NCBI GenBank assembly: GCA_010028705.1
Contig: RHAI01000002.1
Location: 580-64,579 of the forward strand
Source of the DNA: a bacterium
Lineage (GTDB): Bacteria > Margulisbacteria > Marinamargulisbacteria > SXXA01
DNA length: 64,000 bases
Direction of reading: 5' to 3'
The translations under genes were made by a program, and so were the position numbers. Below are positions 1-26,348 of this stretch, piece after piece; position 1 is the first letter of the stretch; every line of letters begins with the position of its first letter. Below the pieces are notes generated by a model that saw only the letters and a program-made list of their open reading frames with translations, made no database searches and was not told the DNA's origin.

Positions 1-1283
1 GGAAATAGGGATTTAATTGTGGCTACATCGAGCGTTTTAGAGGCGAGTGATACATGGATGGTATTTGGGTCGAAAGTTAAATATCCCGTAGCCACAATCG
101 GTGAATTAGCAATCTGACATTTTATACTATGAATCGATAGCCGGGTATTGGGATGGTTAAGCAGTGGGAATAGTCTCGGCGCGACACCTTTGAAGCGATT
201 GGGAAGGCGATTCTTTAGCTCGCCGACGGAATGAATCGTCGCATAAATATGGCCCTCCGAATCGATGATCCCGGTGTCGACCATTGACTTGATCAGGTGA
301 ATCGGCGTCTCTGGATGATTCCCCAAATGCATCACTTGATCCGATTCGATATGATTATTTGCCATTGTAATCATTCCGGACATTTTTGTCGCGCTCGCTG
401 GAAAGATCGGCATGCTGAGTGTGGTATCTCTAATGTGGCCGACGAGGTCATACCAAAACGGAAATTCATGCTGATTCGGTAAGTATTTGCTGTGAATATG
501 GACTTCAGCATCGAGTGTCCCGCCCATGACCGAAAGACTAGGATTATCGATCATGTACGGGCCCCATTTGGTCAGATTAAGGTCCGAAATATTGATTCGG
601 TAATCCCATTGACCATTGGTTGAATTGAGATTGCCGATGATTCGAAACGGGGCTTTAGTCAGACCTAATTTTCCTGAAAATACCATTTTTGCATCGCGGA
701 TATCGTGAAAATCAACGACGCCAGCGAGATCAGTAACGTGATCGACAAACGCTGAATTCGGTTGTGAATTCCCCCATCCTTTTTCGTCTCTGATTTCGAT
801 CGTACTGTCGTCGATATAGATGCGGCCAGTAAATGATAATGGAGGGGCCTGAGGTTCAGGTGGCGGCAGGATCATTAAGACGTTCCATTGGTCGGTTTTT
901 GTCCGAAGCGTTGTAACCGCTAATTTTCGGATCGTTAGGGTGTGGGTGCCCGCTGCAAAATCGCCGTTGTGCGCCATGACTTTTATTAAGTTGTAACGAG
1001 CCGTCGCTTCGCCAATCAAGACTACAGTTCCAGGCCGGTTAAGTGATGGATGATTATAAAATCGAATGCCTTCGAAATGGGCGACTGAAACGATGTTGCC
1101 CGACATTCGATCAATTGTGACCCGTTGTTTAAATATTTTGGACAGTTCGTGTTCAACCACGAGTTTTGCTATTCCATATGGGGCGGTCCGTATAATTGCC
1201 CCAACCCCAAAAATGATCCCTGCAACAGCGGTTATGGTTGCGATAAGTCTGATTTGGCGCTGCAGTCGTAGTATATCTCTCAT
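1..1283 (-). CDS. Partial CDS (N-terminal ~427 codons; 3' end lies beyond the window start): membrane-anchored AsmA/TamB-like protein
   Basis: My manual reverse-complement translation gives a long stop-free frame beginning MRDILRLQRQIRLIATITAVAGIIFGVGAII..., i.e. an N-terminal signal-anchor followed by a long beta-rich periplasmic-looking sequence. The ATG at 1283..1281 overlaps the upstream gene's TGA stop as ATGA (1280-1283). It is absent from the ORF track presumably because it is incomplete. Translation was done by eye, so residue-level errors are possible. Confidence 0.4.
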   Translation of the reverse strand, partial: MRDILRLQRQIRLIATITAVAGIIFGVGAIIRTAPYGIAKLVVEHELSKIFKQRVTIDRMSGNIVSVAHFEGIRFYNHPSLNRPGTVVLIGEATARYNLIKVMAHNGDFAAGTHTLTIRKLAVTTLRTKTDQWNVLMILPPPEPQAPPLSFTGRIYIDDSTIEIRDEKGWGNSQPNSAFVDHVTDLAGVVDFHDIRDAKMVFSGKLGLTKAPFRIIGNLNSTNGQWDYRINISDLNLTKWGPYMIDNPSLSVMGGTLDAEVHIHSKYLPNQHEFPFWYDLVGHIRDTTLSMPIFPASATKMSGMITMANNHIESDQVMHLGNHPETPIHLIKSMVDTGIIDSEGHIYATIHSVGELKNRLPNRFKGVAPRLFPLLNHPNTRLSIHSIKCQIANSPIVATGYLTFDPNTIHVSLASKTLDVATIKSLF

Positions 1284-2510: not shown

Positions 2511-3239
2511 TTATTTTCCGATTGAAATCAATTCCACTTCGAATATAAGTGTCGAGTTTGGCCCAATCAATCCCGCTCCGGATTCGCCGTAGGCCAGTTC
2601 GGAAGGAATATAAAATTCAAACTTGTCGCCTGTTTTCATAAGTTGAAGACCTTCCGTCCAACCGCGTATCACACCATTTAATGGGAACGACGCGGGTTGG
2701 TTACGTTTATACGAACTGTCGAATTCGGTACCATCGATTAAGGTCCCTCTGTAATGGACGGTGACTGTATCCGATGCTTTCGGAGATTTTCGGTTTTTTT
2801 CGGTTCCAGACGAAATTACTTTGTATTGGAGACCGCTCGATGTGCTTTTTACCCCTGATTTTGTTTTGTTTTGTGTCATGAATCGACGACCTGAGTCTAA
2901 GTTTTTGTCTCCGGCCTCCCTCATTTCAGCGTCACGGCGAGATTGCATTTCGGATTGAAATGCGGCAATTACATCTTGTTTTTCTTGATCGGTTAACTTG
3001 CCTTTGCCGGCAATGGCATCTCGGAATCCATCGGCGATAACATTGCCATCAAATTCTGTTCGGTTTTTAAAGGATTCTGCGATAGTCATCCCTACGGCAT
3101 AGCTTCGTTTTTCAATGTCTGATTTAAACATACTGTTACCTACTTCTGTATTCGATTTCGATGTAACGATCGATTGTTCCGCAACCGTTGGTACAGTAAT
3201 AAGGGTAAGGGCTAGGGCTCCGGCGATAATCGATTTCAT
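2511..3239 (-). CDS. fkpA: FKBP-type peptidyl-prolyl cis-trans isomerase (FkpA-like, periplasmic)
   Basis: Signal peptide MKSIIAGALALTLITVPTVA. Helical N-terminal dimerisation region. The C-terminal FKBP domain reads VTVHYRGTLIDGTEFDSS...GVIRGWTEGLQLMKTGDKFEFYIPSELAYGESGAG..STLIFEVELISIG. Confidence 0.85.
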   Translation of the reverse strand: MKSIIAGALALTLITVPTVAEQSIVTSKSNTEVGNSMFKSDIEKRSYAVGMTIAESFKNRTEFDGNVIADGFRDAIAGKGKLTDQEKQDVIAAFQSEMQSRRDAEMREAGDKNLDSGRRFMTQNKTKSGVKSTSSGLQYKVISSGTEKNRKSPKASDTVTVHYRGTLIDGTEFDSSYKRNQPASFPLNGVIRGWTEGLQLMKTGDKFEFYIPSELAYGESGAGLIGPNSTLIFEVELISIGK

Positions 3240-3373
3240 GGTGCTCCTTTGATTGGGAAATTCATTTTTTATTCAAAAAAACAACGATATGTTAGCACGA
3301 ATTCATCGTCAGCCATACTTTAATTTTAGAAAAATAAATTGATTGTTATTAGAAAATAATATAATTTTTATAA

Positions 3374-4060
3374 ATGTCACAATGTAAAATAATATTAAAA
3401 AATGACTCTCTGATCGTGGTTGAAATCCAAAAAGAATATGTGCTGGCGGATTTGATGCACGAGTCGGAGGCACTATCGGAATGGATGAATGATGTTGATG
3501 GTCAGCGGGTGTGCTTAGATATTTCTCGTGAGGCGTGTCATCGTCAACGTCGCTCCCGATGGGGTACCTCCTTTCATGTCCAAGTTCCTGATACCAGTGT
3601 GTACTTTCCAATTTTAGATTTATTTGATCGTAATGGAATTACTATCTCTAAAGTACTCCTTGGCGGTCGGAGTCCGTTCTATCCGTGGAATCGATTCATA
3701 GAGTGTGTGGCGCTCGGGGTCGGATTTATTGCCATGGGGGCTTCAATTTTTTGCTATACATCGTTGAATCAGTTAGACAATCGCGTCACATTGAAGCGCG
3801 CGGCACGCGATCGATTCGAAGCAAATAATCGTCATGTGATTTATCGGAATCACGAATTGCTGCATCGAATTGGGGTGGGTGCGGGATGGATTCAATCCCA
3901 TTATGGGGTGGTGCTAGCGATCCGGGCGACTCCAAAAATGACTGAGATTGCCGCCCTTTTTCCGTCCAATGAGGGTGTTGATAGCGATTCAAATTGGAGA
4001 TGTCAGAGTCGGGGGCTGTCTAGCGACTGGAACTATGTAGATGCTTCATCGATGGAGTGA
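3374..4060 (+). CDS. Hypothetical bitopic membrane protein (PilN/GspL-like?), first gene of the secretin module
   Basis: 228 aa with a single central TM helix (CVALGVGFIAMGASIFCY) followed by a ~100-aa periplasmic-type region. The start is uncertain: the first ~25 codons are very AT-rich, and an alternative Met at about 3454 is possible. Gene order hyp-hyp-secretin with 4-20 nt overlaps. Confidence 0.4.
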   Translation: MSQCKIILKNDSLIVVEIQKEYVLADLMHESEALSEWMNDVDGQRVCLDISREACHRQRRSRWGTSFHVQVPDTSVYFPILDLFDRNGITISKVLLGGRSPFYPWNRFIECVALGVGFIAMGASIFCYTSLNQLDNRVTLKRAARDRFEANNRHVIYRNHELLHRIGVGAGWIQSHYGVVLAIRATPKMTEIAALFPSNEGVDSDSNWRCQSRGLSSDWNYVDASSME

Positions 4061-4433
4061 TCCGTTCAGTGAAGATGTTTTTTTTCGCCATTTTGGGTTT
4101 TGTATTCTGGGTGCGATGGTCGTGTGTGCTGTCACCTTGGTTCCCCAGCTCATCCGCCGGAATAAACTCCAGTTTGAATATGCTCAGCTGATGCAGTCAG
4201 GTCGTGACCGTTCGGCACGCGGAGGAGTGGATTCAATAATCGATCGATTGGGACCCGCTGGGCAGGTGGTAGCGACAGATAATTGTATCCAAATCAGAAA
4301 TGGCTCACCTGACCGATGGGTGGAGATGCTGGCTGACATTCCGATCGAAGTACCTGTGTTGGCGGCTGATATAACTCTCGGGGACGGCATCTATACACTG
4401 ACTCTTCGACTAAGTTCTGCCAATGCTGACTAA
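4041..4433 (+). CDS. Hypothetical bitopic membrane protein (PilO/GspM-like?)
   Basis: 130 aa. N-terminal TM (FGFCILGAMVVCAVTLVPQLI) followed by a short helical then beta-rich C-terminus (ITLGDGIYTLTLRLSSA). This resembles the GspM/PilO topology. Overlaps both neighbours. Confidence 0.4.
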   Translation: MLHRWSDPFSEDVFFRHFGFCILGAMVVCAVTLVPQLIRRNKLQFEYAQLMQSGRDRSARGGVDSIIDRLGPAGQVVATDNCIQIRNGSPDRWVEMLADIPIEVPVLAADITLGDGIYTLTLRLSSANAD

Positions 4434-5451
4434 GTGTGCGATCGGTGCGCTAATCGGATTAGTAGGGTTCCAAGTCGGGTTGTATTCGGCTCCGTATCGT
4501 GGGGCCTTTGACTTGGACCGATTACGCGACGCGTTGCGGGTGCCGCCCCCATCGCCGGTCGCGCCAGTTTCTGATGGACTACCTCGAGCCGAACGGTTTG
4601 CTCAGGTCTTTGGCCAGTATCCGGTGCAATTTGTGCATCCCAATGACGTCAAACAACTCTTGAGTGAGCTGTTTCCAGATTCAAAATTTGTGGCTGATGT
4701 TAGGAACCGTCGGGTGTATTACCAGGTGGTTGCGTCAGATGAAGGGACGATCCGTGGCGCAATATCGTCGATTGACCATGAGCCCAATCAAATTCAAATC
4801 GAGGTGCAAATTATTGAAACCAGTGACGAATTTTCGGAATCACTTAAACGTTGGTTGGCCAATTTGAATACTCCGATTCAATGGTCGATTGATTTGACAC
4901 AGTATGCGGTGATGCCCGACACGGCCATCAGTGGATTTTTGGAATCGTTAAAAAACTCCGGACGGGCAAGTCTTTTAGCCCAACCGTCGATTACGGCATT
5001 GGATAATCAAACAGCGATAGTCAGAGTAGGTGAAAAAATACCGTTTTTGACCACTGTGGTGTCGGATCGAACGACATCCCTTCAGGTTAATAATGCGGAG
5101 ACAGGAATTTCGCTTGAGGTGACTCCACAGGTATCGACCCAAAATTTTGTGCAGGTGGATTTCAAGATTTGTGTCGATAACATTAAGCGATATCGTGAAT
5201 TGTCTGGGAATCAATATCCCGTCGTCACGCATCGATTAGCACAAAGTCGTGTTGGAATTCCAAGCGGTCAGACATTAGTTATAGCGGGGCTGATCGATAA
5301 TGAACAAAAATCCAGTCGGACAAGCGTGCCCGGTTTAGATGGGGTTCCGATTGTGGGGGAGCTGTTTTCAACCACAACGAAGGAGATGGTAACCAACAAC
5401 GTCGTCGTATTTATCACGCCGAAAATTATGAAGCCTGCCACCCGAAAATAA
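4423..5451 (+). CDS. Minimal secretin (type II/III secretion system / PilQ family), 342 aa
   Basis: N-terminal signal. One N-type domain (VQFVHPNDVKQLLSELFP...RVYYQVVASDEGTIRGAISSID). Then the canonical secretin domain beginning QIQIEVQIIETSDEF and ending GQTLVIAGLIDNEQKSSRTSVPGLDGVPIVGELFSTTTKEMVTNNVVVFITPKIM. Confidence 0.8.
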   Translation: MLTKCAIGALIGLVGFQVGLYSAPYRGAFDLDRLRDALRVPPPSPVAPVSDGLPRAERFAQVFGQYPVQFVHPNDVKQLLSELFPDSKFVADVRNRRVYYQVVASDEGTIRGAISSIDHEPNQIQIEVQIIETSDEFSESLKRWLANLNTPIQWSIDLTQYAVMPDTAISGFLESLKNSGRASLLAQPSITALDNQTAIVRVGEKIPFLTTVVSDRTTSLQVNNAETGISLEVTPQVSTQNFVQVDFKICVDNIKRYRELSGNQYPVVTHRLAQSRVGIPSGQTLVIAGLIDNEQKSSRTSVPGLDGVPIVGELFSTTTKEMVTNNVVVFITPKIMKPATRK

Positions 5452-5503
5452 AAAAAGGGAAGCTCTCAGATAGGGGGGGGATCTCCGAGAGCTTCCCTTT
5501 TTT
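5452..5503. terminator. Bidirectional rho-independent terminator
   Basis: aaaaaaGGGAAGCTCTCagataggggggggatctccGAGAGCTTCCCtttttt. An 11-bp GC-rich stem flanked by an A-tract and a T-tract, immediately after the secretin stop. Confidence 0.6.
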
Positions 5504-5726: not shown

Positions 5727-6518
5727 GTGGACCGGATTCTTAAATCCGGCGGAGTGTGGCTCGATAATCAGCGTGTATACTCTCGTGATACAGTTATTTT
5801 GTCCGGTAAGACCCTCAAGGTTTTCATCAGTCCTACCCAAGACGTTCGATACGTGTTACCGGACTACTCGGTGGTCGATGAGACCGTTGATTGGATTGTT
5901 GTGCTAAAACCTAGAGGTTTATCCACGGTGCCTGATCGGGCATGCGAACGGTTTAATTTGACCGCTGCGGTCGAGTCGTATCTCAAAACCAAGGGGATAG
6001 GGTATGTGCCGACAGCGATTTCGCGTTTGGACTTGATGGTAGGTGGAATTGTAATTTTCCCTAAGCATAAACTAGCCGAGAAACGGTTGTTTGAAATGAT
6101 GCGCACCCATCAGATAGTCAAACGGTATCGAATGAAAATTTCTCGACCGGTTGAAGGCTGTATCAAAAATGTTGTGCTTCCGGTTGATTTTAATAGAAAA
6201 GCGATTGTTTGTGACCATGGGAAGCCCAGTCGGACCATTTTTATTCGTGATCAGCGGTTCGACAATGAATGGGTGGCCATTCCTGTCACTGGTCGCAGAC
6301 ACCAGATTCGTTTACACGCCGCGACAGTGTTGAGTCCGATTTTGGGGGACACGATGTACGGCGGACGACGTGCGAGCGAATTTGGATTGACCGCCACCGG
6401 ATTGAATTTTAATTGGGACGGTCACCGAGTTCGAGTGCGCTTTTCTGGTCCTGTCGACTCTATTCGTCAGGTGGAAGGTGCAATTGTTGGACCGGGTGTT
6501 CAGCCGGTTCCAGAGTAA
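5727..6518 (+). CDS. RluA-family pseudouridine synthase with N-terminal S4-like domain
   Basis: S4-like N-terminus (ILKSGGVWLDNQRVYSRDTVI). Catalytic region VVLKPRGLSTVPDRA...HQIRLHAATVLSPILGDTMYGG is typical of RluC/RluD-type enzymes. Confidence 0.8.
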   Translation: MDRILKSGGVWLDNQRVYSRDTVILSGKTLKVFISPTQDVRYVLPDYSVVDETVDWIVVLKPRGLSTVPDRACERFNLTAAVESYLKTKGIGYVPTAISRLDLMVGGIVIFPKHKLAEKRLFEMMRTHQIVKRYRMKISRPVEGCIKNVVLPVDFNRKAIVCDHGKPSRTIFIRDQRFDNEWVAIPVTGRRHQIRLHAATVLSPILGDTMYGGRRASEFGLTATGLNFNWDGHRVRVRFSGPVDSIRQVEGAIVGPGVQPVPE

Positions 6519-7212
6519 TGACTGATAGAGTTCTGTTTTGAATTATCGCATCACGACGGCGTGCGATGCCGTTATTTATGGTTGAATCTATCACAGCGGC
6601 GACTCCTATATTATGGGTGGCTGCCCATTGATTGAGTAGAAATGCGTGATTAACTGTATCGCCGATTACGTCGAGTTGGGCATAATCGCCGTACCCAATT
6701 CGGCCCAAATAAATGGGCCCCTGTTGGAGCGACACCGTCAGTCCCGGCAGTAATTCCAAACGGTTCAGCTGTATGGCCGCATCCCACGCACGTTGCACAT
6801 AATTGAATCCTGAGAAATAGGCCAGAAATCCGTCGCCCAAATATTTTACGGGCACACCACTATAATTTAATATCACTCGGGTTATACTGTGAAACATCCC
6901 GTTCAAAATGACCGCTACTTCGTCGGGAAATAACGTCGCCGCACGCTGCGCGAACCCTCGTACACTTGATGCAAGCACCACACCGGGAAATGTGCTTTGA
7001 ACTGGTACTCCGTCCCGAAGTAGGGTATCCAGGGAGACCTGTAAGACGGTGCTCAGCAGTGGGAGAACGGATAAGTCCGGCGCGTTCATTCCTCGTTCCC
7101 ATTTTGATACAGCTTGAGGCGAAATGTGTAGTGAGTTTGCCAATTGAAGTTGGCTTAGATTCATTGATTCTCGGAGTTTTCGAATCCGTATTCCTAGTCC
7201 CACTAAATTCAT
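6460..7212 (-). CDS. HTH-XRE DNA-binding domain fused to a class III adenylyl/guanylyl cyclase (CHD) domain
   Basis: MNLVGLGIRIRKLRESMNLSQLQLANSLHISPQAVSKWERG is a Cro/C1-type HTH. The C-terminal part (KYLGDGFLAYFSG...YAQLDVIGDTVNHAFLLNQWA) matches the cyclase homology domain. I chose the start at ATG 7212, which has an AGGA ribosome-binding site. The ORF-track start at 7305 would read through a T-tract hairpin. Confidence 0.7.
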   Translation of the reverse strand: MNLVGLGIRIRKLRESMNLSQLQLANSLHISPQAVSKWERGMNAPDLSVLPLLSTVLQVSLDTLLRDGVPVQSTFPGVVLASSVRGFAQRAATLFPDEVAVILNGMFHSITRVILNYSGVPVKYLGDGFLAYFSGFNYVQRAWDAAIQLNRLELLPGLTVSLQQGPIYLGRIGYGDYAQLDVIGDTVNHAFLLNQWAATHNIGVAAVIDSTINNGIARRRDAIIQNRTLSVITLEPAEHPVQQLHLPPDE

Positions 7213-7253
7213 AATATCCTGATAGTTTATGCGAACCGGGATAATAAAAAAAG

Positions 7254-7283
7254 CGCCGGTCAATGGAATGCTTTCGACCGGCG
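7254..7283 (-). promoter_or_regulatory. Terminator-like hairpin plus U-tract in the 5' leader of the HTH-cyclase gene
   Basis: On the minus strand, an 8-bp stem CGCCGGUC/GACCGGCG with a 14-nt loop is followed by UUUUUUUU. It lies ~35 nt upstream of the ATG at 7212. Possibly an attenuator. Confidence 0.35.
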
Positions 7284-7437
7284 ATTTTAACTCGGAGTCC
7301 CCCACCCTAGCGATCTGTTTGTTTCCCGAATGGCTGACTTATTAAACATCATGTTTTTTTGATAAGGTCGTTGGGGTCACACTCAACGACTGGGAATTTT
7401 TTTGAAATTTTTTTTGAAATAATTTCGATAACATAAT

Positions 7438-10203: not shown

Positions 10204-11376
10204 ATGGACTACCAAATTGATTCGAGAAAAATTCAACCGGGGGATGGTTTTTTGTGCCTGCCGGGTGGCGAACGTTTTGAGGCCGATGCTCGGGATCGGG
10301 GGGCCGTTGAAGTACGGTATCTGGATCGGTTAGAGCTGGCCCGGTTTGCGAATGAATATTTTGATTACCCGTCGCGGAATCTGCAGGTGGTTGGTGTAAC
10401 GGGTACGAACGGCAAGACGACGACAACTCATCTAATCTATAATGGTCTCAAAGCCGCTGGATTTTCACCCGAAATTTTAGGGACTTTAAATGCTGAATTG
10501 ACGACACCGGAAAGTTGGGACATCGCACGGCGAATGGCGGCACATCGGAATGTTGGGGGAACTCATTTTGTGATGGAGGTTTCCTCCCATGCCATTGATC
10601 AGCATCGCGTTGATGGAATCGATTTTGATGTCAAATTACTGACCAATATCACTCAGGACCATTTGGATTACCATAAGACATTTGAAGCCTATCGTGAGAC
10701 AAAATTGCGCTTTATGGCCGGTCCGGGGCGTTCCATTTTTCCTGCCGAATTTACTCAGACGGTGCTTGGTTTTCAGGTGCCCCTCCCTGGACGGTTTAAT
10801 ACGGAGAATTTCCAAGCAGCGGTGGCGGTATTACGTGCTTTAGACGTTTCGGATCACGTGATTTCATCCGCCATGGCATCGGCGAGCGCTCCTCCTGGAC
10901 GGTTTGAATTGGTGAAAGAGGGTCAGCCCTTCGATGTAATCGTAGATTATGCGCATACCCCCGATGGGCTGGAAAACGTCTGTCTGGAAGCCCAGCGAAT
11001 CGCACGGAATCGAAATGGCCAGTTTGTGGTGGTGTTTGGCTGTGGTGGCGATCGAGACCGATCCAAACGACCTAAAATGGGACGGATAGCCGAGCGATTG
11101 GCGGATCGGGTGATTGTGACATCCGATAATCCAAGGTCAGAAGTGCCGGGCGCAATTACTGATGATATTTTGGCGGGCCTAGAAGCGCCGGAGCGGGCGG
11201 TCGTGATCCTGGATCGACGTGAAGCGATTCGGGTAGCGATACAGCAGGCTAAACCTAACGATGTTGTTATGGTTGCCGGGAAAGGCCACGAGACCTACCA
11301 GATTTTAGGTTCTGAGACTATTCACTTTGACGATCGCGACGAATGCCGGAAGGCAATCGCGTCGTGCTTTCAATAA
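10204..11376 (+). CDS. murE: UDP-N-acetylmuramoyl-L-alanyl-D-glutamate--2,6-diaminopimelate ligase, N-terminally short
   Basis: VGVTGTNGKTTTTHLIYNGL P-loop. The DNPR motif (VIVTSDNPRSE) indicates meso-DAP specificity. In-frame stops at 10150 and 10195 preclude a longer N-terminus. 390 aa against a typical ~490. Confidence 0.85.
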   Translation: MDYQIDSRKIQPGDGFLCLPGGERFEADARDRGAVEVRYLDRLELARFANEYFDYPSRNLQVVGVTGTNGKTTTTHLIYNGLKAAGFSPEILGTLNAELTTPESWDIARRMAAHRNVGGTHFVMEVSSHAIDQHRVDGIDFDVKLLTNITQDHLDYHKTFEAYRETKLRFMAGPGRSIFPAEFTQTVLGFQVPLPGRFNTENFQAAVAVLRALDVSDHVISSAMASASAPPGRFELVKEGQPFDVIVDYAHTPDGLENVCLEAQRIARNRNGQFVVVFGCGGDRDRSKRPKMGRIAERLADRVIVTSDNPRSEVPGAITDDILAGLEAPERAVVILDRREAIRVAIQQAKPNDVVMVAGKGHETYQILGSETIHFDDRDECRKAIASCFQ

Positions 11377-11380
11377 CTGT

Positions 11381-12517
11381 ATGAAATATACGATCGATTC
11401 ACGCTTGGTTGAGCCTGGTGATTACTTTATTCCTTTCAAAGGCCCAAGATTCGATGGGCGCGATTTTATTCCAGACGTTATTAAAAATGGTGGCCGGGTA
11501 CTGGATGTTGACTTAGGTGCCTTTGCAAAAAAATATCGAAAAAAATTAAAATGTTCCGTTCTTGCCGTCACCGGCAGTGCCGGAAAGACAACGACCAAAG
11601 ACATGCTTTACGCCGTATTATCCCAAAAATATAAGGTTGTAAAAACAGAGGAGAATCAAAATAACGAGGTCGGCGTTCCGTTGACAATATTGCGCGCCGA
11701 TTTTTCAACCGAGATATTGATCCTTGAAATGGGGATGCGAGGATTAGGGCAGATTTCCGAACTAGCTCGCATCGCACGTCCGAGCCACGTTGTCATCACT
11801 AATATTGGCCTGGCCCATATCGAACTCCTCGGTAACCAAAAAAAAATTGCCCTAGCGAAATCGGAAGTATTTTTGAAGCGATTGGATTGGGAGCGTCCCA
11901 AGAGATTCGCTTTTCTGAACGCATCAACGGCGTACTACGACACCTTGGTTGCAAGGTCGAATCGAGTGGGGTTTGATGTGCTGCCGTTTGGCGGTAACGA
12001 TAAGCCCGAACAAAATATTAATTGTTGCTTTAGCGTTGGCCGTCATTTCGGACTTAGCGATGATGAAATTCATGACGGCCTTAAAACGTATCGACCATCA
12101 TCTCATCGAATGACACCACTAGAATTGCCCCACAACGTTACTGTGCTTGATGATACGTATAACGCAAATCCGGATGGAGTCATCTATTCGTTACAGTATT
12201 TACGGCGATATTCCGGGCGAAAAATCCTAGTCTTGGGTGACATGCTTGAACTCGGGGACTGGTCAGAGTCGGCCCATCAATCCATTGTTGATGTGGCGAT
12301 TGACGCTGGAGTCGAACTGCTGTTTACAACAGGCGAGCATACCCAAAAAATAACGATGGCTTCAGACTTGGTATGGATGGCCCATTTTGAATCGAAGGAT
12401 ACGCTAGTGCGTCAGTTAATTGATGAGGTAAAACCTGGGGATGTTATCCTAGTAAAAGGGTCCCGGGGTATGACGATGGAGACTGTCGTCAATGCGTTGG
12501 TGGAAGGGATAAGATGA
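11381..12517 (+). CDS. murF: UDP-N-acetylmuramoyl-tripeptide--D-alanyl-D-alanine ligase
   Basis: MKYTIDSRLVEPGDYFIPFKG...LAVTGSAGKTTTKDMLYAVLS. The start moved to ATG 11381, just after the murE stop. The track ORF at 11327 overlaps murE. Confidence 0.85.
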   Translation: MKYTIDSRLVEPGDYFIPFKGPRFDGRDFIPDVIKNGGRVLDVDLGAFAKKYRKKLKCSVLAVTGSAGKTTTKDMLYAVLSQKYKVVKTEENQNNEVGVPLTILRADFSTEILILEMGMRGLGQISELARIARPSHVVITNIGLAHIELLGNQKKIALAKSEVFLKRLDWERPKRFAFLNASTAYYDTLVARSNRVGFDVLPFGGNDKPEQNINCCFSVGRHFGLSDDEIHDGLKTYRPSSHRMTPLELPHNVTVLDDTYNANPDGVIYSLQYLRRYSGRKILVLGDMLELGDWSESAHQSIVDVAIDAGVELLFTTGEHTQKITMASDLVWMAHFESKDTLVRQLIDEVKPGDVILVKGSRGMTMETVVNALVEGIR

Positions 12518-13401
12518 CCATTGGATGGATTTTCTTAGCGACTCTTCCATGCTATTGGGGGTTGATAGTTGTCCTCCGGGTTCTAAAGGGTGTGCAGCGA
12601 ATATACGAGTTGTCGCCAGCCCAACATCAAGGTAAATCGGGGACGGTGTCGATGGGTGGCATCGGCATTGTTTGCTTGACCATATTGGCATCTGTTGCAA
12701 CTCGCCAACTCGCACCGACGGATATTTTTTTATTAGCCGTGCTGGCGGGCTTTGGAATCGTCGGTTTTATGGATGACGTTATGTCAATTCGTCGGCGGAA
12801 AAACCTGGGGCTGACCGCTTCGTACAAATTCCTAATTCAACTTGGGGTGTCTGTGGTGATGGTCCTTGCCTTTCACACGTGGATTCGCGCGTTGCCGGTC
12901 TGGCAACTTGGGTGGTACGTATTTATGATGACTGGGTTTTCGAACGCAACAAATTTAACCGATGGATTGGATGGATTGTTGGGTGGGTTGTCGCTGATTA
13001 CTTTGGGAGCCTTTCTTATTGGTGTCAGTGGCGTGGCCGGTGCATCAATTATAGGGGTTGCAATGGCCGTCGTCGCCGGGTTTTTGGTATTCAATGTTAA
13101 CCCCGCGAAAGTGTTTATGGGGGACACTGGCTCCTTAGCCTTGGGGGCTTTTTTTGTAGCCCTTTCCATGGTGATTAATCAGCCATTTATTATGCTGATC
13201 CTTGGGGGGGTGTATGTGATTGAAACGCTAAGTGTCATTCTTCAAGTCCTGTCGTTTAAGTGGCGCGGTAAACGGGTGTTTCGCATGGCACCCCTGCATC
13301 ACCATTTTGAATTGATGGGCTGGTCGGAACGAAAGGTTGTGACGGTCTTCTGGGTAGGCGGGATGGTATGTTCAGGGCTAGCGTGGTGGATATTCAACTA
13401 G
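12514..13401 (+). CDS. mraY: Phospho-N-acetylmuramoyl-pentapeptide transferase (compact, 295 aa)
   Basis: DDVMSIRRRKN, NATNLTDGLDGL, FMGDTGSLALG, ETLSVILQVLSFKWRGKRVFRMAPLHHHFEL. ATGA overlap with murF. Confidence 0.9.
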   Translation: MTIGWIFLATLPCYWGLIVVLRVLKGVQRIYELSPAQHQGKSGTVSMGGIGIVCLTILASVATRQLAPTDIFLLAVLAGFGIVGFMDDVMSIRRRKNLGLTASYKFLIQLGVSVVMVLAFHTWIRALPVWQLGWYVFMMTGFSNATNLTDGLDGLLGGLSLITLGAFLIGVSGVAGASIIGVAMAVVAGFLVFNVNPAKVFMGDTGSLALGAFFVALSMVINQPFIMLILGGVYVIETLSVILQVLSFKWRGKRVFRMAPLHHHFELMGWSERKVVTVFWVGGMVCSGLAWWIFN

Positions 13402-14609
13402 ATAAAGTCGCGGTGCTGGGAGATGGAATTACCGGACGAGCTGTTCGTGAGTACCTCCATGCCCATGGATTTGCTCCGGTGCCACCGACTGACGCGGAAG
13501 TCTTGGTTGTGAGTCCTGGCATTCATCCGTCACACTATCCATCGACGCCGGCTATTGTGATGTCGGAAATTGAATTTGCTTATCAGATGTTCAAAAAAAA
13601 ATTGAGGCCCCCAAAATTGGTAGCGGTTACGGGGACCAATGGGAAATCGACGATTACATCAATGATTGGCCACATCCTCGATGCTCCGATCTCGGGAAAT
13701 ATAGGGCGCCCGTTCATTGCCTGTGCTGATTTAGAGGATCCGATAATTATTGTTGAAGTTAGCAGTTATCAGTTAGAAACCGTTATCGAATTTTCGCCTA
13801 GTGTAAGCGTGGTGTCTAATATTACTCCGGATCATCTCGAGCGTCACGGGACAATGGCGGCTTATGCGGCCGCGAAGTCTCGTGTCTTTATGAATCAATT
13901 GGCTAAAGATGTACTCGTAGCCCATGGGTCCGATGTGATGGTTCAGTCGATAATTACTCAATGCCCCGCTCAACAAGTCCTGTTAACCCCAACGTCTGAA
14001 CTGACCCTCACCATCGCACGATTAGCTGCGGGCGCCCAAGCGAATGGAAACGCTCGAGGTCTGATTGGATCTCATAATCATTTAAATGGCGCCATGGCCG
14101 TTGCCGCCTCTGTGGCCCTTGGATGGCAAGAATCGGATGCCATCGAAAAACTCCTCTCTTACCTCCCTCTGCCTCACCGAATGGAATGGGTGCGGCACAT
14201 TGACGGGCGAGATTTTTTTAACGACTCCAAGGCAACCAACCCGGAGTCAACATTAGTGGCTGTGTCATCATTTGCCTCACCCGTTCATTTGTTGTTAGGG
14301 GGGAAAGACAAGGGGTTGGAAATGGCCGTTTTTTTACAACAGGTCAACCAGATGGTGGCCAGTATCACTGTTTATGGGGAAATCGGTGACAGAATTATAC
14401 GGACACTCGACAACGTATCCTGTACAATTCCCGTTAAACAGGTGGATACGTTGGACGCGGCCACGCTCTGGGCGTTCGAACATTCTGATCCGGGCAGCGT
14501 TATTCTGCTGTCACCGGCCTGTTCAAGCTTTGACCAATTTACGGATTTTAATCATCGAGGAGATCATTTTAAGGCATATGTCCACGCGATTCGTTCGGTC
14601 TCGGCCTGA
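13368..14609 (+). CDS. murD: UDP-N-acetylmuramoylalanine--D-glutamate ligase
   Basis: LVAVTGTNGKSTITSMIGHIL. Mur ligase central and C-terminal domains. Position between mraY and ftsW. Confidence 0.85.
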   Translation: MFRASVVDIQLDKVAVLGDGITGRAVREYLHAHGFAPVPPTDAEVLVVSPGIHPSHYPSTPAIVMSEIEFAYQMFKKKLRPPKLVAVTGTNGKSTITSMIGHILDAPISGNIGRPFIACADLEDPIIIVEVSSYQLETVIEFSPSVSVVSNITPDHLERHGTMAAYAAAKSRVFMNQLAKDVLVAHGSDVMVQSIITQCPAQQVLLTPTSELTLTIARLAAGAQANGNARGLIGSHNHLNGAMAVAASVALGWQESDAIEKLLSYLPLPHRMEWVRHIDGRDFFNDSKATNPESTLVAVSSFASPVHLLLGGKDKGLEMAVFLQQVNQMVASITVYGEIGDRIIRTLDNVSCTIPVKQVDTLDAATLWAFEHSDPGSVILLSPACSSFDQFTDFNHRGDHFKAYVHAIRSVSA

Positions 14610-15708
14610 TCTGCCGTTATTGTTAATCACCTTAGGCCTGATCGTCATTGGAGTAATTATGATTATTTCAACGAGTTCAGTGGTGGGATATACCGGTTAC
14701 AATGACAGCTATTACTTCATCAAAAAACATTTGCTATATCTCGTCATGGGTACCCTGACATTTACGCTGGGATTTAAGATTCCGCATACCCGGTATCAAA
14801 AATGGGCGGGTCGCGGCGTGGCCATTTGTAGCATTCTAGTCATCTTAACGATGATTCCGGGTATCGGGGTGATGGCCTTTGGGGCTCGACGATGGATCAA
14901 TCTAGGTTTTTTTAGTTTCCAGCCCGTTGAAACCTTAAAGTTTTTTGTAATAACTTATACGGCGTTAGTACTATCTCAGAAAAAAGAAAAAATTCGATCC
15001 ATTCAGCATGGATTGCTCCCTTTTTTTGGGGTCGTTGTGATTCCGATATTGTTGACGGCTAAGCAACCTGATTTGGGGAATACTGTGCTCATGGGAGTCG
15101 TTATTTTCGCGTTATTGTTCGTAGCGAAGTCACGACTAACTCATTTGTTTGGGTTGGTTGCCGCTGGATTGGGTGGCGTAGTGGGTAGTATTTTTTTGCA
15201 TCCGTATCAAATGCAGCGAATCAAGACTTTTTTGGATCCATTCGCCGATCCACTCGGTAAAAGTTATCACATTGTTCAAAGTTTTATTGCCATTGGTTCA
15301 GGCGGTTTTTGGGGTGTTGGTATTGGGCAGAGTCGTCTGAAATATTCGTATTTGCCGCTTCAATATTCGGATTTTATTTTCTCGATAATTTGCGAAGAAG
15401 GCGGATGGATCTTAGCGGTAACAGTTATTTTGCTGCTCCTGTTTTTTTTTCATCGTGGGATGAAAATTGCACTGAAATCTCATTCATTATTTTCTTACTA
15501 TTTAGCGATTGGATTGGCGTTACAGATTGTTCTCCAATCATTCATCAACATTGCAGTGGCCGTTGGGGTATTTCCGACCAAAGGAATTCCGTTAGCGTTT
15601 ATTAGTTTTGGGGGTACCTCATTAATTATGTCGATGTTTACGGTTGGTGTGATGATGAATATTTCCACGATGACGGCTCTCCCGAAAGAAAACCCGCGTG
15701 CCGGATAA
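14578..15708 (+). CDS. ftsW: SEDS-family peptidoglycan glycosyltransferase / cell-division protein FtsW
   Basis: A 10-TM SEDS protein (GIGVMAFGARRWINLGFFSFQPVE...QPDLGNTVLM...IAIGSGGFWGVGIGQS...DFIFSII). The start is set at Met 14578. The track start at 14374 lies deep inside murD. Confidence 0.8.
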   Translation: MSTRFVRSRPDLPLLLITLGLIVIGVIMIISTSSVVGYTGYNDSYYFIKKHLLYLVMGTLTFTLGFKIPHTRYQKWAGRGVAICSILVILTMIPGIGVMAFGARRWINLGFFSFQPVETLKFFVITYTALVLSQKKEKIRSIQHGLLPFFGVVVIPILLTAKQPDLGNTVLMGVVIFALLFVAKSRLTHLFGLVAAGLGGVVGSIFLHPYQMQRIKTFLDPFADPLGKSYHIVQSFIAIGSGGFWGVGIGQSRLKYSYLPLQYSDFIFSIICEEGGWILAVTVILLLLFFFHRGMKIALKSHSLFSYYLAIGLALQIVLQSFINIAVAVGVFPTKGIPLAFISFGGTSLIMSMFTVGVMMNISTMTALPKENPRAG

Positions 15709-16723
15709 ATTTATTGTTTCGTGCGGCGGAACCGGTGGCCATATCTATCCTGCAATTGCCGTTGCTCAGGAGATGTCGGAATTTCAAGCGGTGTTTCTGG
15801 GATCGACTGATCGCATAGACGGTGATATCGTTCGGCGCCACGGGTATCCATTCTATGGGGTGGCTTCCTCTCGATCGTCAATCGCTGCTCTGAGTGTTGG
15901 CATATTTCGAGCGCTTGGGCATATTCGTCGAGTTAAACCCCGTTGGGTGGTGTGCACGGGTGGTATGATTACCTTGCCGGTAGCGATCGCGGCCAAATTA
16001 TGTCGTGTTCCCATAATCGTACTAGAGCAAAATTCAATTACGGGTCGAACCAATCGGATCATTAGTTACATGGCATCGTTTGTGATTGGGGCGTTTCCAA
16101 CTACCAAAGGGTTGCCATCAGCGGTCCCGTTAGGGAATCCGGTTCGAAAGGTATTTTTGACCGATTCGTGGGTGGAGGCATTGGTTCCAATTCTAGAAAT
16201 TCAACGTGATGTGATTTTGGTATTCGGTGGGAGCCAGGGGTCCCATGGACTCAATAAGATTGTTCTCGATAACGTGCCCCAATTTGCGGTTCGCCATTGG
16301 TTTTTAGTCCATATTGTTGGCGATGCCGAATATCGCCGAATGGGCTATTCCGGGCCGATTCAGTCGCTTGTTACCCCAAGTGGAAAAATAATCGGCGTGA
16401 TCTTGCCGTACGCTGAATCGATGGATGTCTTGTATCGCTTTGCATCTGTTGTCGTGTGTCGGTCTGGGGCGACGTCACTGGCTGAATTATTGGAGTTTCA
16501 GAAGCCGTCAGTCTTGATACCATACCCGTACGCCACTGATGATCATCAGCGCTATAACGCTGAATTGATGGTGGAAAAGGGGGCGTCTGTCATGATTAGC
16601 GAGTCGTCATTGACGATCGACGGATTGATGGACGCCATTGATACGGCCCAACGCTGTCGGGTTCCGGCAGGGAGCGGGGGCGCGCGTGAGCGTATTGCAA
16701 CCATGATTCAAAAAATAAAGTAA
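15698..16723 (+). CDS. murG: Undecaprenyldiphospho-muramoylpentapeptide beta-N-acetylglucosaminyltransferase
   Basis: VSCGGTGGHIYPAIAVAQE N-terminal motif. GT-B architecture. C-terminal VVCRSGATSLAELLEFQKPSVLIPYPYATDDHQRYNAE. Confidence 0.85.
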   Translation: MPDKFIVSCGGTGGHIYPAIAVAQEMSEFQAVFLGSTDRIDGDIVRRHGYPFYGVASSRSSIAALSVGIFRALGHIRRVKPRWVVCTGGMITLPVAIAAKLCRVPIIVLEQNSITGRTNRIISYMASFVIGAFPTTKGLPSAVPLGNPVRKVFLTDSWVEALVPILEIQRDVILVFGGSQGSHGLNKIVLDNVPQFAVRHWFLVHIVGDAEYRRMGYSGPIQSLVTPSGKIIGVILPYAESMDVLYRFASVVVCRSGATSLAELLEFQKPSVLIPYPYATDDHQRYNAELMVEKGASVMISESSLTIDGLMDAIDTAQRCRVPAGSGGARERIATMIQKIK

Positions 16724-17552
16724 TGCGTATTGGTGTCGTCACACGAAATCCTCGCTTATATTCCTCGAAGCGATTAATTCAGGCGATACGCGATGTCGGG
16801 CACGAGGCTGTTATTATCGATCCATTTCGATGCGTTTTGCAGTGTAATCCATTAGCGATTCGCCATAAAAATAGACCCTTGCCTACTATGGCGTTTGTAA
16901 TTCCGCGAATTGCCACTCAGGGCTTTCCGGTGGTTATGGCGGTGTTGAGACATTTTGAAGCAATGGGCGTCCCCCTCGTAAATTCGACTTCAAGTATCGC
17001 GCTTGCGAGAGACAAATGGGCCACGCTCCAGACACTTGCGATGGCAGGGCTCCCCATTCCAACCTCGGTGTTTTCAACCGATCCGTTATATTCGAGCCAT
17101 TTGACACGGCATCTCGGATCGCCTGTCGTGTTGAAAACCCTCGATGGCACTCAGGGCGCTGGTGTTATGGTAGCAGAATCACGCCGGAGCGCCCGGAGTA
17201 TCGTCGAATGTTTGAATACCTCGCGGACTGATTTTATCGCTCAAGAATACATCGCTGAAGCTGGAAATTCTGATATTCGATGCCTAGTGCTTGACGGTAA
17301 AATACTTGCGGCAATGCAGCGAAAAAGTGCCGATGATGACTTTCGTGCCAATATTCATTTGGGAGGCGAAGCATCCGTAGTTCAGCTGTCAGCCGACGAA
17401 ATTCGAGTAGCGATTGCGGCGGCCCAAGTAGTGGGTGTGCGATTTGCCGGTGTCGATTTATTACGCCGGGTCTGGAAGGGATTGAATCCGTGAGTCAACG
17501 GGACATTTCTCATGCAGTCATTGAGTACATGTTCCGCCATTATGGGCTCTGA
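16723..17552 (+). pseudogene. rimK: rimK-family ATP-grasp alpha-L-glutamate ligase disrupted by a small deletion/frameshift near the 3' end
   Basis: Colinear with E. coli RimK from MRIGVVTRNPRLYSSKRLIQAIRDVGHEAVIIDP through ...VGVRFAGVDLLR. The frame then reads RVWKGLNP* (stop at 17491-17493). The expected C-terminus TPGLEGIESVSQRDISHAVIEYMFRHYGL* is encoded in the +2 frame (17463..17552). The intervening ~13 codons (E. coli ANRGPLVMEVNAS, carrying the metal-binding E/N) are missing. Confidence 0.7.
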
Positions 17553-24607: not shown

Positions 24608-25168
24608 ATGTCACCACTTAAATTAGTAATCCGAGGGGTAGTTTTACTCTCCATCCTAATGGTGGGCCGGTATACGTTTTCTGACTCTTATTTCGGGGGG
24701 GGGGAGATGTCCATTAACGATGGCCTAGTCTATAAACGTAGTTTGAATGCTAACTCGTACGGTCGAGGCTATGTCGGGATTGGACTATCGAATCCTACTC
24801 AGAACTTTGTCGTAAACGGTAGTGTTTTGGTGAGCGGCAACGTACTCAACTCCGAGCATTCGTATGCCGACGTTGGTAGTGGCGGAACCCTCACTCTTGA
24901 TTTGTCGGCTGGGAACCTGCAATGCGTGACGATTAACGGTACCGTCTCGCTCCAGATTACTAACCGTCCAAACGCGGCCGCACTTTACCGTATAACCATT
25001 GGAGGCCTTAATAATCCATCTATTAATTTTGGACAGTTGATTAAATTCCCGGAATCCCAGATTCCCATTCTTGCTACGAGTAATTGTTTGTACCTTTTTT
25101 ATGATGGGGCAACGAGCGAAAATGGATCGGATACGTTGTATGGCATACGAGAGTTGGGGCCCGAATGA
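24608..25168 (+). CDS. Secreted/anchored hypothetical protein, paralogue A of a tandem triad (tail-fibre-like motifs)
   Basis: N-terminal signal-anchor VIRGVVLLSILMVG. Motifs YVGIGLSNP, VLVSGNV, LDLSAGNLQCVTING...LQITNRPN, C-terminal CLYLFYDG. Shares architecture with the next two ORFs. Confidence 0.5.
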   Translation: MSPLKLVIRGVVLLSILMVGRYTFSDSYFGGGEMSINDGLVYKRSLNANSYGRGYVGIGLSNPTQNFVVNGSVLVSGNVLNSEHSYADVGSGGTLTLDLSAGNLQCVTINGTVSLQITNRPNAAALYRITIGGLNNPSINFGQLIKFPESQIPILATSNCLYLFYDGATSENGSDTLYGIRELGPE

Positions 25169-25749
25169 ACGCTTTTCGTACGTGCCTGAAATTCCTAATC
25201 GTTACCTTATTCATTCAGGGGGTGATCTTTGCAACCCATAGCACAGAGGGGCGCCTCGATGACACGTCGTTTGCTATTGAGGATGTTGGTTTCGCCGTCA
25301 ACGGAAGCCGTGTTGGGATTGGGACTAACAATGTCGGGGGGGAAACGCTGGAAGTTCGAGGTACAACCCGTTTGTCGGGATTGGTGACTTACCTCAATAA
25401 CCCCAGCTCCGAAGCAACAATTGATTGGACAAAGGGCAACTGTCAACGTGTCGTGATTTCCAATGATGGTCCGATAGGTATCATATTCGCAGCTAATCCT
25501 ACGACTGACGCCAACCTGATCCTGTCGGTAGCGTACGAGACTGACTCTCCTGGGAAAATGACGGTGAGTCTGGATCCCAATTTATCGGGTACTGGCTTGA
25601 AATGGGCGCGCAATGTGAGTATGAACAGCGTCGCTCCGATTAGTCACAATATTGATGTGCTCCGGTTCTCGTATCGGAAGTCGAAGTCCTTGTATCCGAA
25701 GGGTGAGTATTTCGGCTATGCCACGTTTTGGTATCGGGCGCCGCAATGA
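25165..25749 (+). CDS. Secreted hypothetical protein, paralogue B
   Basis: Signal LKFLIVTLFIQGVIFA. VGIGTNNVGGETLEVRGT (tail-fibre-like G-I-G-T...L.V.G). IDWTKGNCQRVVISNDGPIGIIFAANP. ATGA overlap with A. Confidence 0.5.
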   Translation: MNAFRTCLKFLIVTLFIQGVIFATHSTEGRLDDTSFAIEDVGFAVNGSRVGIGTNNVGGETLEVRGTTRLSGLVTYLNNPSSEATIDWTKGNCQRVVISNDGPIGIIFAANPTTDANLILSVAYETDSPGKMTVSLDPNLSGTGLKWARNVSMNSVAPISHNIDVLRFSYRKSKSLYPKGEYFGYATFWYRAPQ

Positions 25750-26312
25750 ACAGGCTGTTGAGAGTTGTTTTACTGATTATTACCGTGTTGGGCGTTGGTC
25801 GCCAGGTGATCGGGGTTAATTCCATGACACATAATGCGCTAACCCTAAGTTCAGGTAATGTGACGTATAAAAATGGGATGCTGGGCATCGGAATTACCTT
25901 TCCCATGGCGACAGTCCACGTCAGTGGCAATATTAAGTTTAGTACGGATAACAGTACTATAGCGAGTAGCAATGCATCCAACACCATTACATCCCGATTG
26001 GTAAAAGTAGTGGGAGGAAAAGTAGACTGGATTAAAGGCCATTTTCAAGAAGTCACTGTTGGTGGTGGGGCGGTTACGATGACCTTTGTTGATCCACCAG
26101 GCCCGTGCGGCCTCTTATTAAAAGTCAAGAGGACTGGGTCCTCGACACTGGCGTTTCCGGCGACAGTTTTGTGGCCGTATGCGAACCCCCTTGATCAGAC
26201 GTCATCTGAGCAAGGGGGTGGTTCGATCGCAAATCCAGTGGTTGATTTTGTGGGTTTTTACTTTGATGGTGTCAATTATTACGCTGACATGAACATTCTG
26301 TTTGGTAACTAG
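25728..26312 (+). CDS. Secreted hypothetical protein, paralogue C
   Basis: Signal LLRVVLLIITVLGVG. LGIGITFPMATVHVSGNI. VDWIKGHFQEVTVGGGAVTMTFVDPP. C-terminal FVGFYFDG. Overlaps B by 22 nt. Confidence 0.5.
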   Translation: MVSGAAMNRLLRVVLLIITVLGVGRQVIGVNSMTHNALTLSSGNVTYKNGMLGIGITFPMATVHVSGNIKFSTDNSTIASSNASNTITSRLVKVVGGKVDWIKGHFQEVTVGGGAVTMTFVDPPGPCGLLLKVKRTGSSTLAFPATVLWPYANPLDQTSSEQGGGSIANPVVDFVGFYFDGVNYYADMNILFGN

Positions 26313-26348
26313 TGTGAATCGGTTATTAGCGCATGTACCAGCGTCAAT

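Follow-up and report, generated by a model that had tools for sequence, protein, structure and literature searches.

Does a secretin gene that stands far from any pilin, ATPase or platform gene encode a channel that works on its own, or the pore of a larger machine whose other parts are encoded elsewhere? This question was raised by a three-gene module found in a 64,000-nucleotide stretch (the window) of contig RHAI01000002.1 from the bacterial assembly GCA_010028705.1 (Margulisbacteria; SXXA01). Two overlapping genes, orf1 and orf2, which code for small membrane proteins, precede in this module the gene of a secretin of 342 aa, referred to here as the mini-secretin. The evidence was best accommodated by a vertically inherited, translationally coupled operon that would encode the pore and the inner-membrane alignment part of a reduced type IV filament-type machine, an interpretation in which we have moderate confidence. 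Hence, the module is most likely a stripped-down alignment complex with its pore, rather than a new kind of machine. All the coordinates given below, unless another locus is named, refer to the whole window, which has a GC content of 0.47, and are collected in Table 1.

A small secretin with a predicted single N-type domain

The product of the last gene was matched by the Pfam Secretin family (PF00263) with 135.2 bits (cut-off 27.5, E = 2.1e-39) over residues 176-337. The VPGLxxxPxxGxLF motif was present and conserved in an alignment of seven lineages, and the protein ends only a few residues beyond it. The Secretin_N family stayed below its threshold in the window copy (15.1 bits vs 28.2, E = 0.028, residues 66-119), and was listed for the homologues P0002 and P0004 and for the protein of the related locus L021. 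Furthermore, the profile of the mini-secretin family aligned with f1 pIV (query residues 60-340 on chain 105-412), a region that spans N3 and the secretin domain, and the PHROG family phrog_1012, "protein IV of M13", was matched by residues 61-337 on profile positions 107-401/403 (E = 3e-35). The N3 region also aligned to the SctC profile. The preliminary description of this DNA had announced a secretin of about 340 aa with one N-type domain; the secretin was confirmed without ambiguity, and the predicted single N-type domain is supported by the Secretin_N matches of the homologues together with the f1 pIV alignment and the PHROG pIV profile.

No N0, STN or AMIN domain was detected in the mini-secretin (PF21305, PF07660 and STN were unmatched), nor was an S domain. 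The pIV profiles aligned to it only from profile position ~105-107 on, and, since only ~38 residues separate the signal peptide from the N3-type domain, there would be no room for N0.

The highest NCBIfam score was obtained with GspD (TIGR02517), with 135.7 bits against a cut-off of 351.35 and restricted to model positions 414-591. It was followed by PilQ (TIGR02515; 120 bits, cut-off 284.35), SctC (86.5 bits, cut-off 238) and MshL (84 bits, cut-off 250). When the PDB was searched with profiles, the best match was again GspD (8e-29), with PilQ at 2e-25. Judged from its sequence, the mini-secretin is a true member of the secretin superfamily that falls in no curated subfamily. It is predicted to be exported by Sec, and should form a gated multimeric outer-membrane beta-barrel above one N3-type ring.

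The nearest proteins outside the family were of ~450-485 aa, carried N0, N3 and secretin domains, and many of them were annotated as PilQ, for example those of Syntrophorhabdaceae. In a crude neighbour-joining tree, built with the C-terminal 270 residues of seven mini-secretins and the references, the seven were monophyletic and their sister clade was of PilQ type, including Acinetobacter baumannii PilQ and the HofQ-like protein P0054. The Tad-type secretins and the GspD references were placed farther away than the PilQ-type ones; the mean distance to the mini-secretins was 0.78 for the Tad-type and 0.73 for the PilQ-type. The pIV protein of phage Pf3 (430 aa) showed 27.6% identity over residues 68-336 (87 bits), so that, by these comparisons, phage pIV appears to be about equally distant from the mini-secretin as cellular PilQ and GspD.

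Additionally, the C-terminal tail K-K-K-E-A-L-R was identical in five of the seven mini-secretins, whose overall identity was only ~45-80%, while the window copy and P0002 ended in other tails. It may serve as a signal for docking or sorting, short and conserved. Two tandem secretin genes were found in one of the closest outgroup loci, L013 (895-4370), the first coding for 679 aa with AMIN, STN and Secretin_N matches and the second for 474 aa with STN and Secretin_N.

Two single-pass inner-membrane partners

The products of orf1 and orf2 are, as far as their hydrophobicity indicates, single-pass inner-membrane proteins: one hydrophobic helix was present in all eight members of the orf1 family (residues ~107-128), and one membrane helix in every member of the orf2 family (residues ~18-40). 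The single transmembrane segment that had been ascribed to each of the two overlapping genes was thus recovered throughout both families. A short cytoplasmic N-terminus had been proposed for both proteins, and this held for Orf2 but not for Orf1, in which ~105 conserved residues precede the helix. Since this folded stretch of Orf1 has no signal peptide, it must stay in the cytoplasm, which would place the C-terminal half of the protein in the periplasm. The invariant columns of Orf1 were G64, P72, Y77, P79, D82, V94, P101, N151, N159, G178 and W219, and H154 was kept in at least 90% of the members.

The N-terminal tail of Orf2 carries the motif W-[ST]-D-P-F-S, with D7, P8 and F9 invariant in the seven-lineage alignment. 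Past the membrane helix come ~90 residues, for which a short coiled segment and a domain of ~65 aa with the order alpha-beta-beta-alpha-beta-beta were predicted. This order of elements is that of the fold type described for PilO, PilN and GspM. The AlphaFold2 (AF2) model of Orf2, made from the single sequence, had a pLDDT (predicted local distance difference test) that averaged 65, with values of 66-82 over most of the C-terminal domain, and its elements were helices 60-73 and 90-98 and strands 75-78, 82-86, 106-114 and 117-124. When this model was compared by Foldseek with 350,542 PDB chains, Pseudomonas aeruginosa PilO (2rjz_B) came up at rank 6 (E = 0.13, probability 0.44, 104 aligned columns) and an inner-membrane protein of the Klebsiella type II secretion system (T2SS), 5hl8_A (PulL), at rank 33 (E = 0.32). 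These two matches sit among generic ACT and ferredoxin-like domains. The modelled fold is suggestive of the PilO/GspM type.

A possible paralogy of the two partners was also considered; the alignment of the C-terminal half of Orf1 with Orf2 by hhalign gave a probability of 12%, which was not significant.

Conservation of the module and its origin

The search with the secretin among 5.8 billion clustered proteins retrieved three close relatives (53%, 50% and 44% identity), after which the identity dropped to 25-28%. Scans of the GTDB species representatives and of JGI metagenomes added the loci L009 (CAIPHK01), L010 (CANIAP01) and L016. In the same way, a phmmer scan of 1.84 billion representatives with Orf1 yielded a family of eight members, all of 228-231 aa, and two spurious matches, whereas Orf1 and Orf2 retrieved nothing but themselves in word-indexed homology searches.

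Altogether, the module recurs in approximately eight lineages of unclassified freshwater bacteria, which include those of loci L005, L006/L016, L009, L010, L020, L021 and L022. Every locus of sufficient length has a divergent fkpA, then orf1, orf2 and the gene of the secretin, after which rluA and a convergent gene coding for an HTH-cyclase protein usually come. The divergent fkpA adjoined orf1 in every related locus that was long enough (L005, L006/L016, L009, L010, L020 and L021). In the seven-lineage alignment the secretins were 42-52% identical to the window copy, and the partners 23-27% (Orf1) and 23-35% (Orf2). Protein lengths, positions of the membrane helices and a set of invariant residues were nevertheless kept across lineages. 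Between L009 and L010 the dN/dS ratio was 0.16 for orf1, 0.22 for orf2 and 0.09 for the secretin gene, values that are rough because dS was near saturation; they indicate that all three genes are under purifying selection. This conservation across lineages, together with the dN/dS ratios, showed that the genes are real and co-inherited, and the view of a self-contained three-gene module around an unusually small secretin was thus borne out.

The neighbours named in the preliminary description, fkpA and an RluA-family gene, were both verified by Pfam and NCBIfam matches (for fkpA, FKBP_C 5.5e-32 and FKBP_N 1.1e-23 in Pfam and PRK10902 8.7e-59 in NCBIfam). A functional link of fkpA to the module is something that we only infer. 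The most divergent lineage, L021, keeps the order bamA-tamB-lpxB-like-(HAD)-fkpA upstream of the module, as does the genome of the window (L001). In both genomes this row consists of bamA (POTRA/Omp85), a TamB-like gene of ~1650-1700 aa and an LpxB-related gene (TIGR03492), although the 350-aa protein at the LpxB-related position of L021 had no Pfam match. The bamA/tamB/LpxB-related neighbourhood indicates that the organism has two membranes. On the other side of the module, the RluA-family gene (+) and a gene with HTH_3 and adenylate/guanylate-cyclase-like matches (-) converge and overlap by ~59 nt (5727-7305), and L009, L010 and L021 keep this convergent pair downstream of their modules. L021 comes from GCA_013572995.1 (contig JACCDX011839394.1), an assembly with contig numbers above 1.8 million. 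This suggests a bulk or host-associated assembly, possibly of a eukaryote, and the lineage may also be a contaminant or a symbiont.

The similarity to pIV described above raised another explanation, namely that the module is a domesticated export module of a filamentous phage (inovirus), made of a pIV-like secretin with pI/pXI-like partners. The match to phrog_1012, the identity with Pf3 pIV and the f1 pIV alignment over N3 and the secretin domain speak for it, as the two proteins can be aligned end to end over these domains and are both small. Besides, the longer and the shorter of the two bitopic inner-membrane partners recall pI and pXI. Nevertheless, this similarity was no higher than that to cellular PilQ/GspD. 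Phage pIV keeps N0, and in the Pf3 protein the matched region is preceded by ~124 N-terminal residues that presumably form N0, all of which is absent in the mini-secretin. As for the partners, a Zot-type ATPase domain is part of pI, of which pXI is an in-frame fragment, whereas inspection of the Orf1 sequence revealed no Walker A motif, and neither Orf1 nor Orf2 matched any PHROG. The flanks carry housekeeping genes and no phage genes, lineages that diverged deeply all keep the chromosomal synteny, and neither the profile of the secretin nor that of Orf1 retrieved a relative from 2.9 million viral contigs. With a stable chromosomal locus and no relatives among viral contigs, a phage origin is not supported; it was largely refuted, and we regard it as highly improbable.

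Operon organization and expression signals

The open reading frames of the module overlap, orf1 and orf2 by 20 nt and orf2 and the secretin gene by 11 nt, and fkpA is transcribed divergently from them. Clear Shine-Dalgarno sequences were located before fkpA (AAAGGAG) and before rluA, but none before orf1, orf2 or the secretin gene. Their absence fits the translational coupling of orf2 and the secretin gene and, in the case of orf1, a very short or absent leader.

In the region between fkpA and orf1, a candidate promoter was recognized on the + strand, with TTGATT (3339-3344), a spacer of 15 nt and TATAAT (3360-3365) placed 8 nt before the ATG of orf1. A similar geometry, TTGATA-N17-TAnAAT-N6-ATG, was seen upstream of orf1 in L009 and L010. 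This predicted promoter may give rise to a leaderless or near-leaderless mRNA of the operon. An AT-rich promoter region had been claimed here; its composition agreed with this (GC 0.24 vs 0.47), whereas promoter-like sites, scanned by consensus, were overall no commoner than in shuffles. The TTGATT/TATAAT pair was not flagged by that scan because of its 15-nt spacer.

The strong bidirectional terminator that had also been described was found directly after the stop codon of the secretin gene, as a hairpin with a 17+5 bp stem (dG -31 kcal/mol, z = -3.4; 1 of 200 shuffles was equally stable), flanked by A7 upstream and U6 downstream. Due to its long composite stem and loop it was missed by a simple scan. 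This predicted terminator would close the operon, and with its A-run and U-run flanks it could act in both directions.

Table 1. Positions of the features in the window (nucleotides), in related loci where these are named, and in the encoded proteins (residues).
Feature	Position	Strand	Evidence or remark
Outer-membrane biogenesis row beside fkpA and the module	1280-2386; L001 18-6861 (upstream of window start); L021 855-8552
fkpA (FKBP_N + FKBP_C periplasmic peptidyl-prolyl isomerase/chaperone)	2511-3239	-	Pfam, NCBIfam
Divergent intergenic region, AT-rich, 134 bp	3240-3373		GC 0.239
-35/-10-like pair, 6-9 nt from orf1 ATG	3339-3376; L009 8886-8948; L010 8797-8936
orf1, 228 aa	3374-4060	+	Open reading frame; NCBI NDC82145.1 "hypothetical protein"
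orf2, 130 aa	4041-4433	+	Open reading frame; NCBI NDC82146.1
Mini-secretin gene, 342 aa	4423-5451	+	Pfam Secretin; NCBI NDC82147.1 "hypothetical protein"
Intrinsic terminator hairpin (predicted)	5451-5503		RNA folding
RluA-family gene	5727-6518	+	Pfam, NCBIfam
Tandem paralogous genes, ~186-194 aa	24608-25168; 25165-25749; 25728-26312		No Pfam match
382-aa secreted protein after the three paralogues	26349-27497
Orf1, conserved N-terminal domain, probably alpha/beta, ~105 aa	Before membrane helix
Orf1, helical stretch	Residues ~130-170
Orf1, beta-rich C-terminal domain	Residues ~175-228
Mini-secretin, predicted signal peptide	Residues ~1-23		Hydrophobic stretch 5-23
Mini-secretin, invariant motif Y-x-G-[PA]-F-D	Residues 25-30		Predicted mature N-terminus
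Mini-secretin, Pro-rich linker, ~30 residues	Residues ~31-60
Mini-secretin, single N3-type domain	Residues ~61-125
Mini-secretin, secretin domain	Residues ~126-340
Mini-secretins with tail K-K-K-E-A-L-R	P0003; P0004; L009 10001-11044; L010 9989-11035; L021 11072-12082

A putative alignment complex of type IV filament type

In the alignment-complex reading, Orf1 and Orf2 would form a pair of the PilN/PilO or GspL/GspM kind, joined by way of membrane helices, coiled segments and small periplasmic domains of ferredoxin-like fold. Orf1 would be GspL-like, with a cytoplasmic domain fused to a PilN-like part, and Orf2 would be PilO/GspM-like. Their heterodimer would reach up from the inner membrane and, in a module that has neither N0 nor PilP/GspC, would probably touch the secretin through its invariant Y-x-G-P-F-D peptide and the proline-rich tether of ~30 residues. 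On the cytoplasmic side, a partner might dock on the N-terminal domain of Orf1 and on the D-P-F tail of Orf2, by analogy with PilN-PilM and GspL-GspE; this partner would presumably be an ATPase of the PilB/GspE type or a PilM-like protein, with its gene at another site. The genes of the motor ATPase, the platform and the pilins would likewise lie in other parts of the genome, as they usually do with operons of the pilMNOPQ type, and the product would be a pilus, a competence pseudopilus or a T2SS-like piston.

The gene order is the first point in its favor: a bitopic protein, a second bitopic protein and a secretin follow each other as in pilN-pilO-(pilP)-pilQ of the Acinetobacter pilMNOPQ operon (L023) and of a hofMNOPQ-like operon (L014). 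In the operons of this kind (pilMNOPQ/hofMNOPQ/comABCDE), two bitopic genes also stand directly upstream of the secretin gene and are coupled to it. Orf2 resembles PilO in its predicted membrane helix, coiled coil and alpha-beta-beta-alpha-beta-beta domain, the short peptide conserved at its cytoplasmic end is reminiscent of the N-terminus with which PilN binds PilM, and PilQ-type secretins are the nearest relatives of the mini-secretin. The differences from the type IVa pilus (T4aP) operons are the lack of PilM and PilP, the lack of N0 or AMIN in a secretin of 342 aa as compared with about 415-720 aa in those operons, and the cytoplasmic domain of ~105 aa in Orf1, which PilN does not have.

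The T2SS offers a second comparison. The order gspL-gspM-x-gspD occurs in Skermanella (L024), an alphaproteobacterial T2SS, the size and topology of Orf2 are those of GspM, and the layout of Orf1, with a cytoplasmic domain, one membrane helix and a small periplasmic domain, corresponds to that of GspL at the level of topology. GspL is, however, of about 400-425 aa (L024, L025), against the 228 aa of Orf1, and its cytoplasmic domain is much larger. Neither GspC nor the N0-N1-N2 domains nor adjacent gspE-K genes are present in the module.

The mini-secretin had been placed near the minimum size of its family. It is unusually small indeed, but short secretins devoid of N0 were already known: in Myxococcus xanthus, KilC is such a secretin, which works inside a Tad-like (Kil) type IV filament machine (PMC8460266). 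N0, which is canonical in the secretins of the T2SS, of type III secretion and of the T4aP and in pIV, is common, not defining, for secretins, and KilC is a precedent for a minimal one. It differs from the mini-secretin in being of the CpaC/RcpA (Tad) type and in the genes clustered with it, which code for an ATPase, a homologue of CpaB and a prepilin peptidase, while no CpaB-like gene was found at the mini-secretin locus.

Several results weigh against an alignment complex of this type. The preliminary description had found no pilM, pilP, pilin, ATPase, T2SS or type III secretion system (T3SS) genes in the flanking 5 kb, and this absence was extended to the 64 kb of the window and ~5.6 kb upstream of it, where none of the genes for a pilin, PilM, PilP, the ATPase, the platform, a T2SS or a T3SS was present. 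Neither did L009, L010 or L021 contain any type IV filament gene within ~10 kb of the module. The proposed likeness of the two partners to PilN/PilO or GspL/GspM persisted in gene order, in topology and in the predicted fold of Orf2, but it found no echo in any sequence or profile search. The window copies of Orf1 and Orf2 matched nothing in Pfam, NCBIfam or PHROG. The same held, even at E <= 10, for 12 members of the Orf1 family and 5-7 of the Orf2 family against Pfam and NCBIfam; PilN (PF05137), PilO (PF04350), GspL (PF05134/PF12693) and GspM (PF04612) were among the unmatched families. PDB sequence searches with profiles of 3, 5 and 12 sequences of Orf1 or Orf2 produced only chance matches, and no sequence or profile method related either protein to PilP or GspC. 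The best Foldseek match of the Orf2 model had E = 0.05 and none was significant, and ferredoxin-like folds are common. For Orf1 the single-sequence AF2 model was unusable (pLDDT 33), with a low-confidence b-b-b-a-b-a order in the cytoplasmic domain; since this model failed, a GspL-like or PilM-like nature of that domain is conjecture. Finally, N0 and PilP/GspC, the usual elements that couple secretin and platform, are absent, and profiles of phage pIV give the secretin scores that are about equal.

Orf1 and Orf2 were also aligned by hhalign with PilM, PilN, PilO, PilP, GspL, GspM, GspC and a PilM-N fusion taken from L012, L014, L023, L024 and L025. The probabilities did not exceed 7%, in a comparison that had no power, as the true pairs (PilN-GspL, PilO-GspM and PilM with the PilM-N fusion) failed in it too.

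The separation from pilus genes had been presented as an unusual, "orphan" condition, which proved overstated. The Acinetobacter operon lies between ponA and aroK, and the hofMNOPQ-like one beside the gene of penicillin-binding protein 1a (PBP1a), in both cases with no pilin or ATPase genes nearby. Since these T4aP operons are equally isolated, the distance of the module from pilus genes is ordinary, and it is the content of the operon, with no PilM, no PilP/GspC and no N0, that is the unusual part.

Channels and assembly factors as other explanations

That content could also be read as an autonomous three-component channel without a filament motor, that is, an outer-membrane conduit gated by Orf1 and Orf2 and used for DNA uptake, export of a polymer or slime, or something else. 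The absence of pilin, ATPase and platform genes in ~70 kb here and in the related flanks agrees with it, and so do the lack of N0, PilP or GspC to couple a platform, the lack of detectable relatives of the two partner families, and the vicinity of the bamA-tamB-lpxB-like-fkpA genes for envelope biogenesis, seen both in the window and in L021. Nevertheless, the distance from motor genes is normal for pilMNOPQ-type operons, as just described, and no well-characterised secretin is known to do without an inner-membrane machine of its own. Unrelated housekeeping genes (rluA and the HTH-cyclase gene) belong to the conserved neighbourhood as well, and therefore the synteny reflects shared ancestry and not function. 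Moreover, the conserved domain that precedes the membrane helix of Orf1, like the D-P-F tail of Orf2, argues for a cytoplasmic partner. Such a channel thus seems unlikely. We would regard as rather improbable a self-sufficient conduit of a deep-branching uncultured freshwater lineage, in which a minimal secretin without N0, gated or anchored by two proteins of a previously unknown inner-membrane family, would operate without ATPase, platform or pilin, possibly within a bamA-tamB-fkpA neighbourhood for outer-membrane biogenesis or export.

A different function for the partners would be the assembly or anchoring of the secretin, as functional analogues of GspA/GspB (ExeA/B, OutB) or of pilotins. 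They would then fasten the secretin to the inner membrane or the cell wall and assist its insertion, possibly with FkpA. GspB acts through the N0 domain of its secretin, and this target is absent in the mini-secretin. Orf1 and Orf2 have no sequence match to GspB, to the GspB/T2SSB family of Pfam or to peptidoglycan-binding domains, and the model of Orf2 shows the alpha-beta-beta-alpha-beta-beta order rather than a GspC-HR-like beta-sandwich. On the other hand, with both GspB/OutB and GspA/ExeA, small bitopic inner-membrane proteins are encoded beside the secretin, as here; the secretin of the module has no S domain and there is no pilotin gene; and fkpA is an invariant divergent neighbour. GspB/OutB is portrayed in PMC9239104 as a bitopic protein of small size in the inner membrane, which ties the secretin to that membrane and to peptidoglycan, and the size and topology of Orf2 agree with that portrayal. 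All in all, a role of this kind is doubtful, and we would not expect it to account for the module.

Other features of the window

The remainder of the window contained, among others, dcw genes, ilvD, nusA/infB, ftsK, accAD, recN, glmS and dnaE, and no rRNA or tRNA genes. Some of the open reading frames were inspected as possible filament components. Those at 43.9-49.8 kb, which had the size of pilB/T/C, were rejected, as they corresponded to iPGM, a UDP-GlcNAc 2-epimerase, a UDP-sugar dehydrogenase and GlmS. The three secreted paralogues of ~190 aa at 24.6-26.3 kb were likewise discarded as pilins, for they have ordinary signal peptides and no prepilin motif; the genes at 24608-27497 may form a small family of surface or secreted proteins. 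A scan for prepilin leaders found none in the window, in the ~5.6 kb upstream of it or in the flanks of L009, L010 and L021, as compared with 3-4 in each control type IV pilus (T4P)/T2SS locus.

The cluster for cell-wall synthesis at 10204-17493 begins at murE, with a divergent sigma-factor gene immediately upstream and no ftsL/ftsI there. After murG comes a gene of the RimK-type ATP-grasp family, with no ftsQ/A/Z. The MurE open reading frame is short (390 aa) and had no match to the N-terminal domain of Mur_ligase.

Implications

If the module does encode a reduced alignment complex and its pore, it would be about the smallest natural set of a secretin plus its anchor that has been seen, with one N3-type ring and no N0, PilP/GspC or pilotin. 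It would then provide a minimal model for the coupling of a secretin to the inner membrane and for the parts of the alignment complex that are dispensable, and two orphan protein families, now annotated as "hypothetical", would receive a role. Should the genomes that carry it have no type IV filament motors, the module would stand as the first example of a new type of secretin system.

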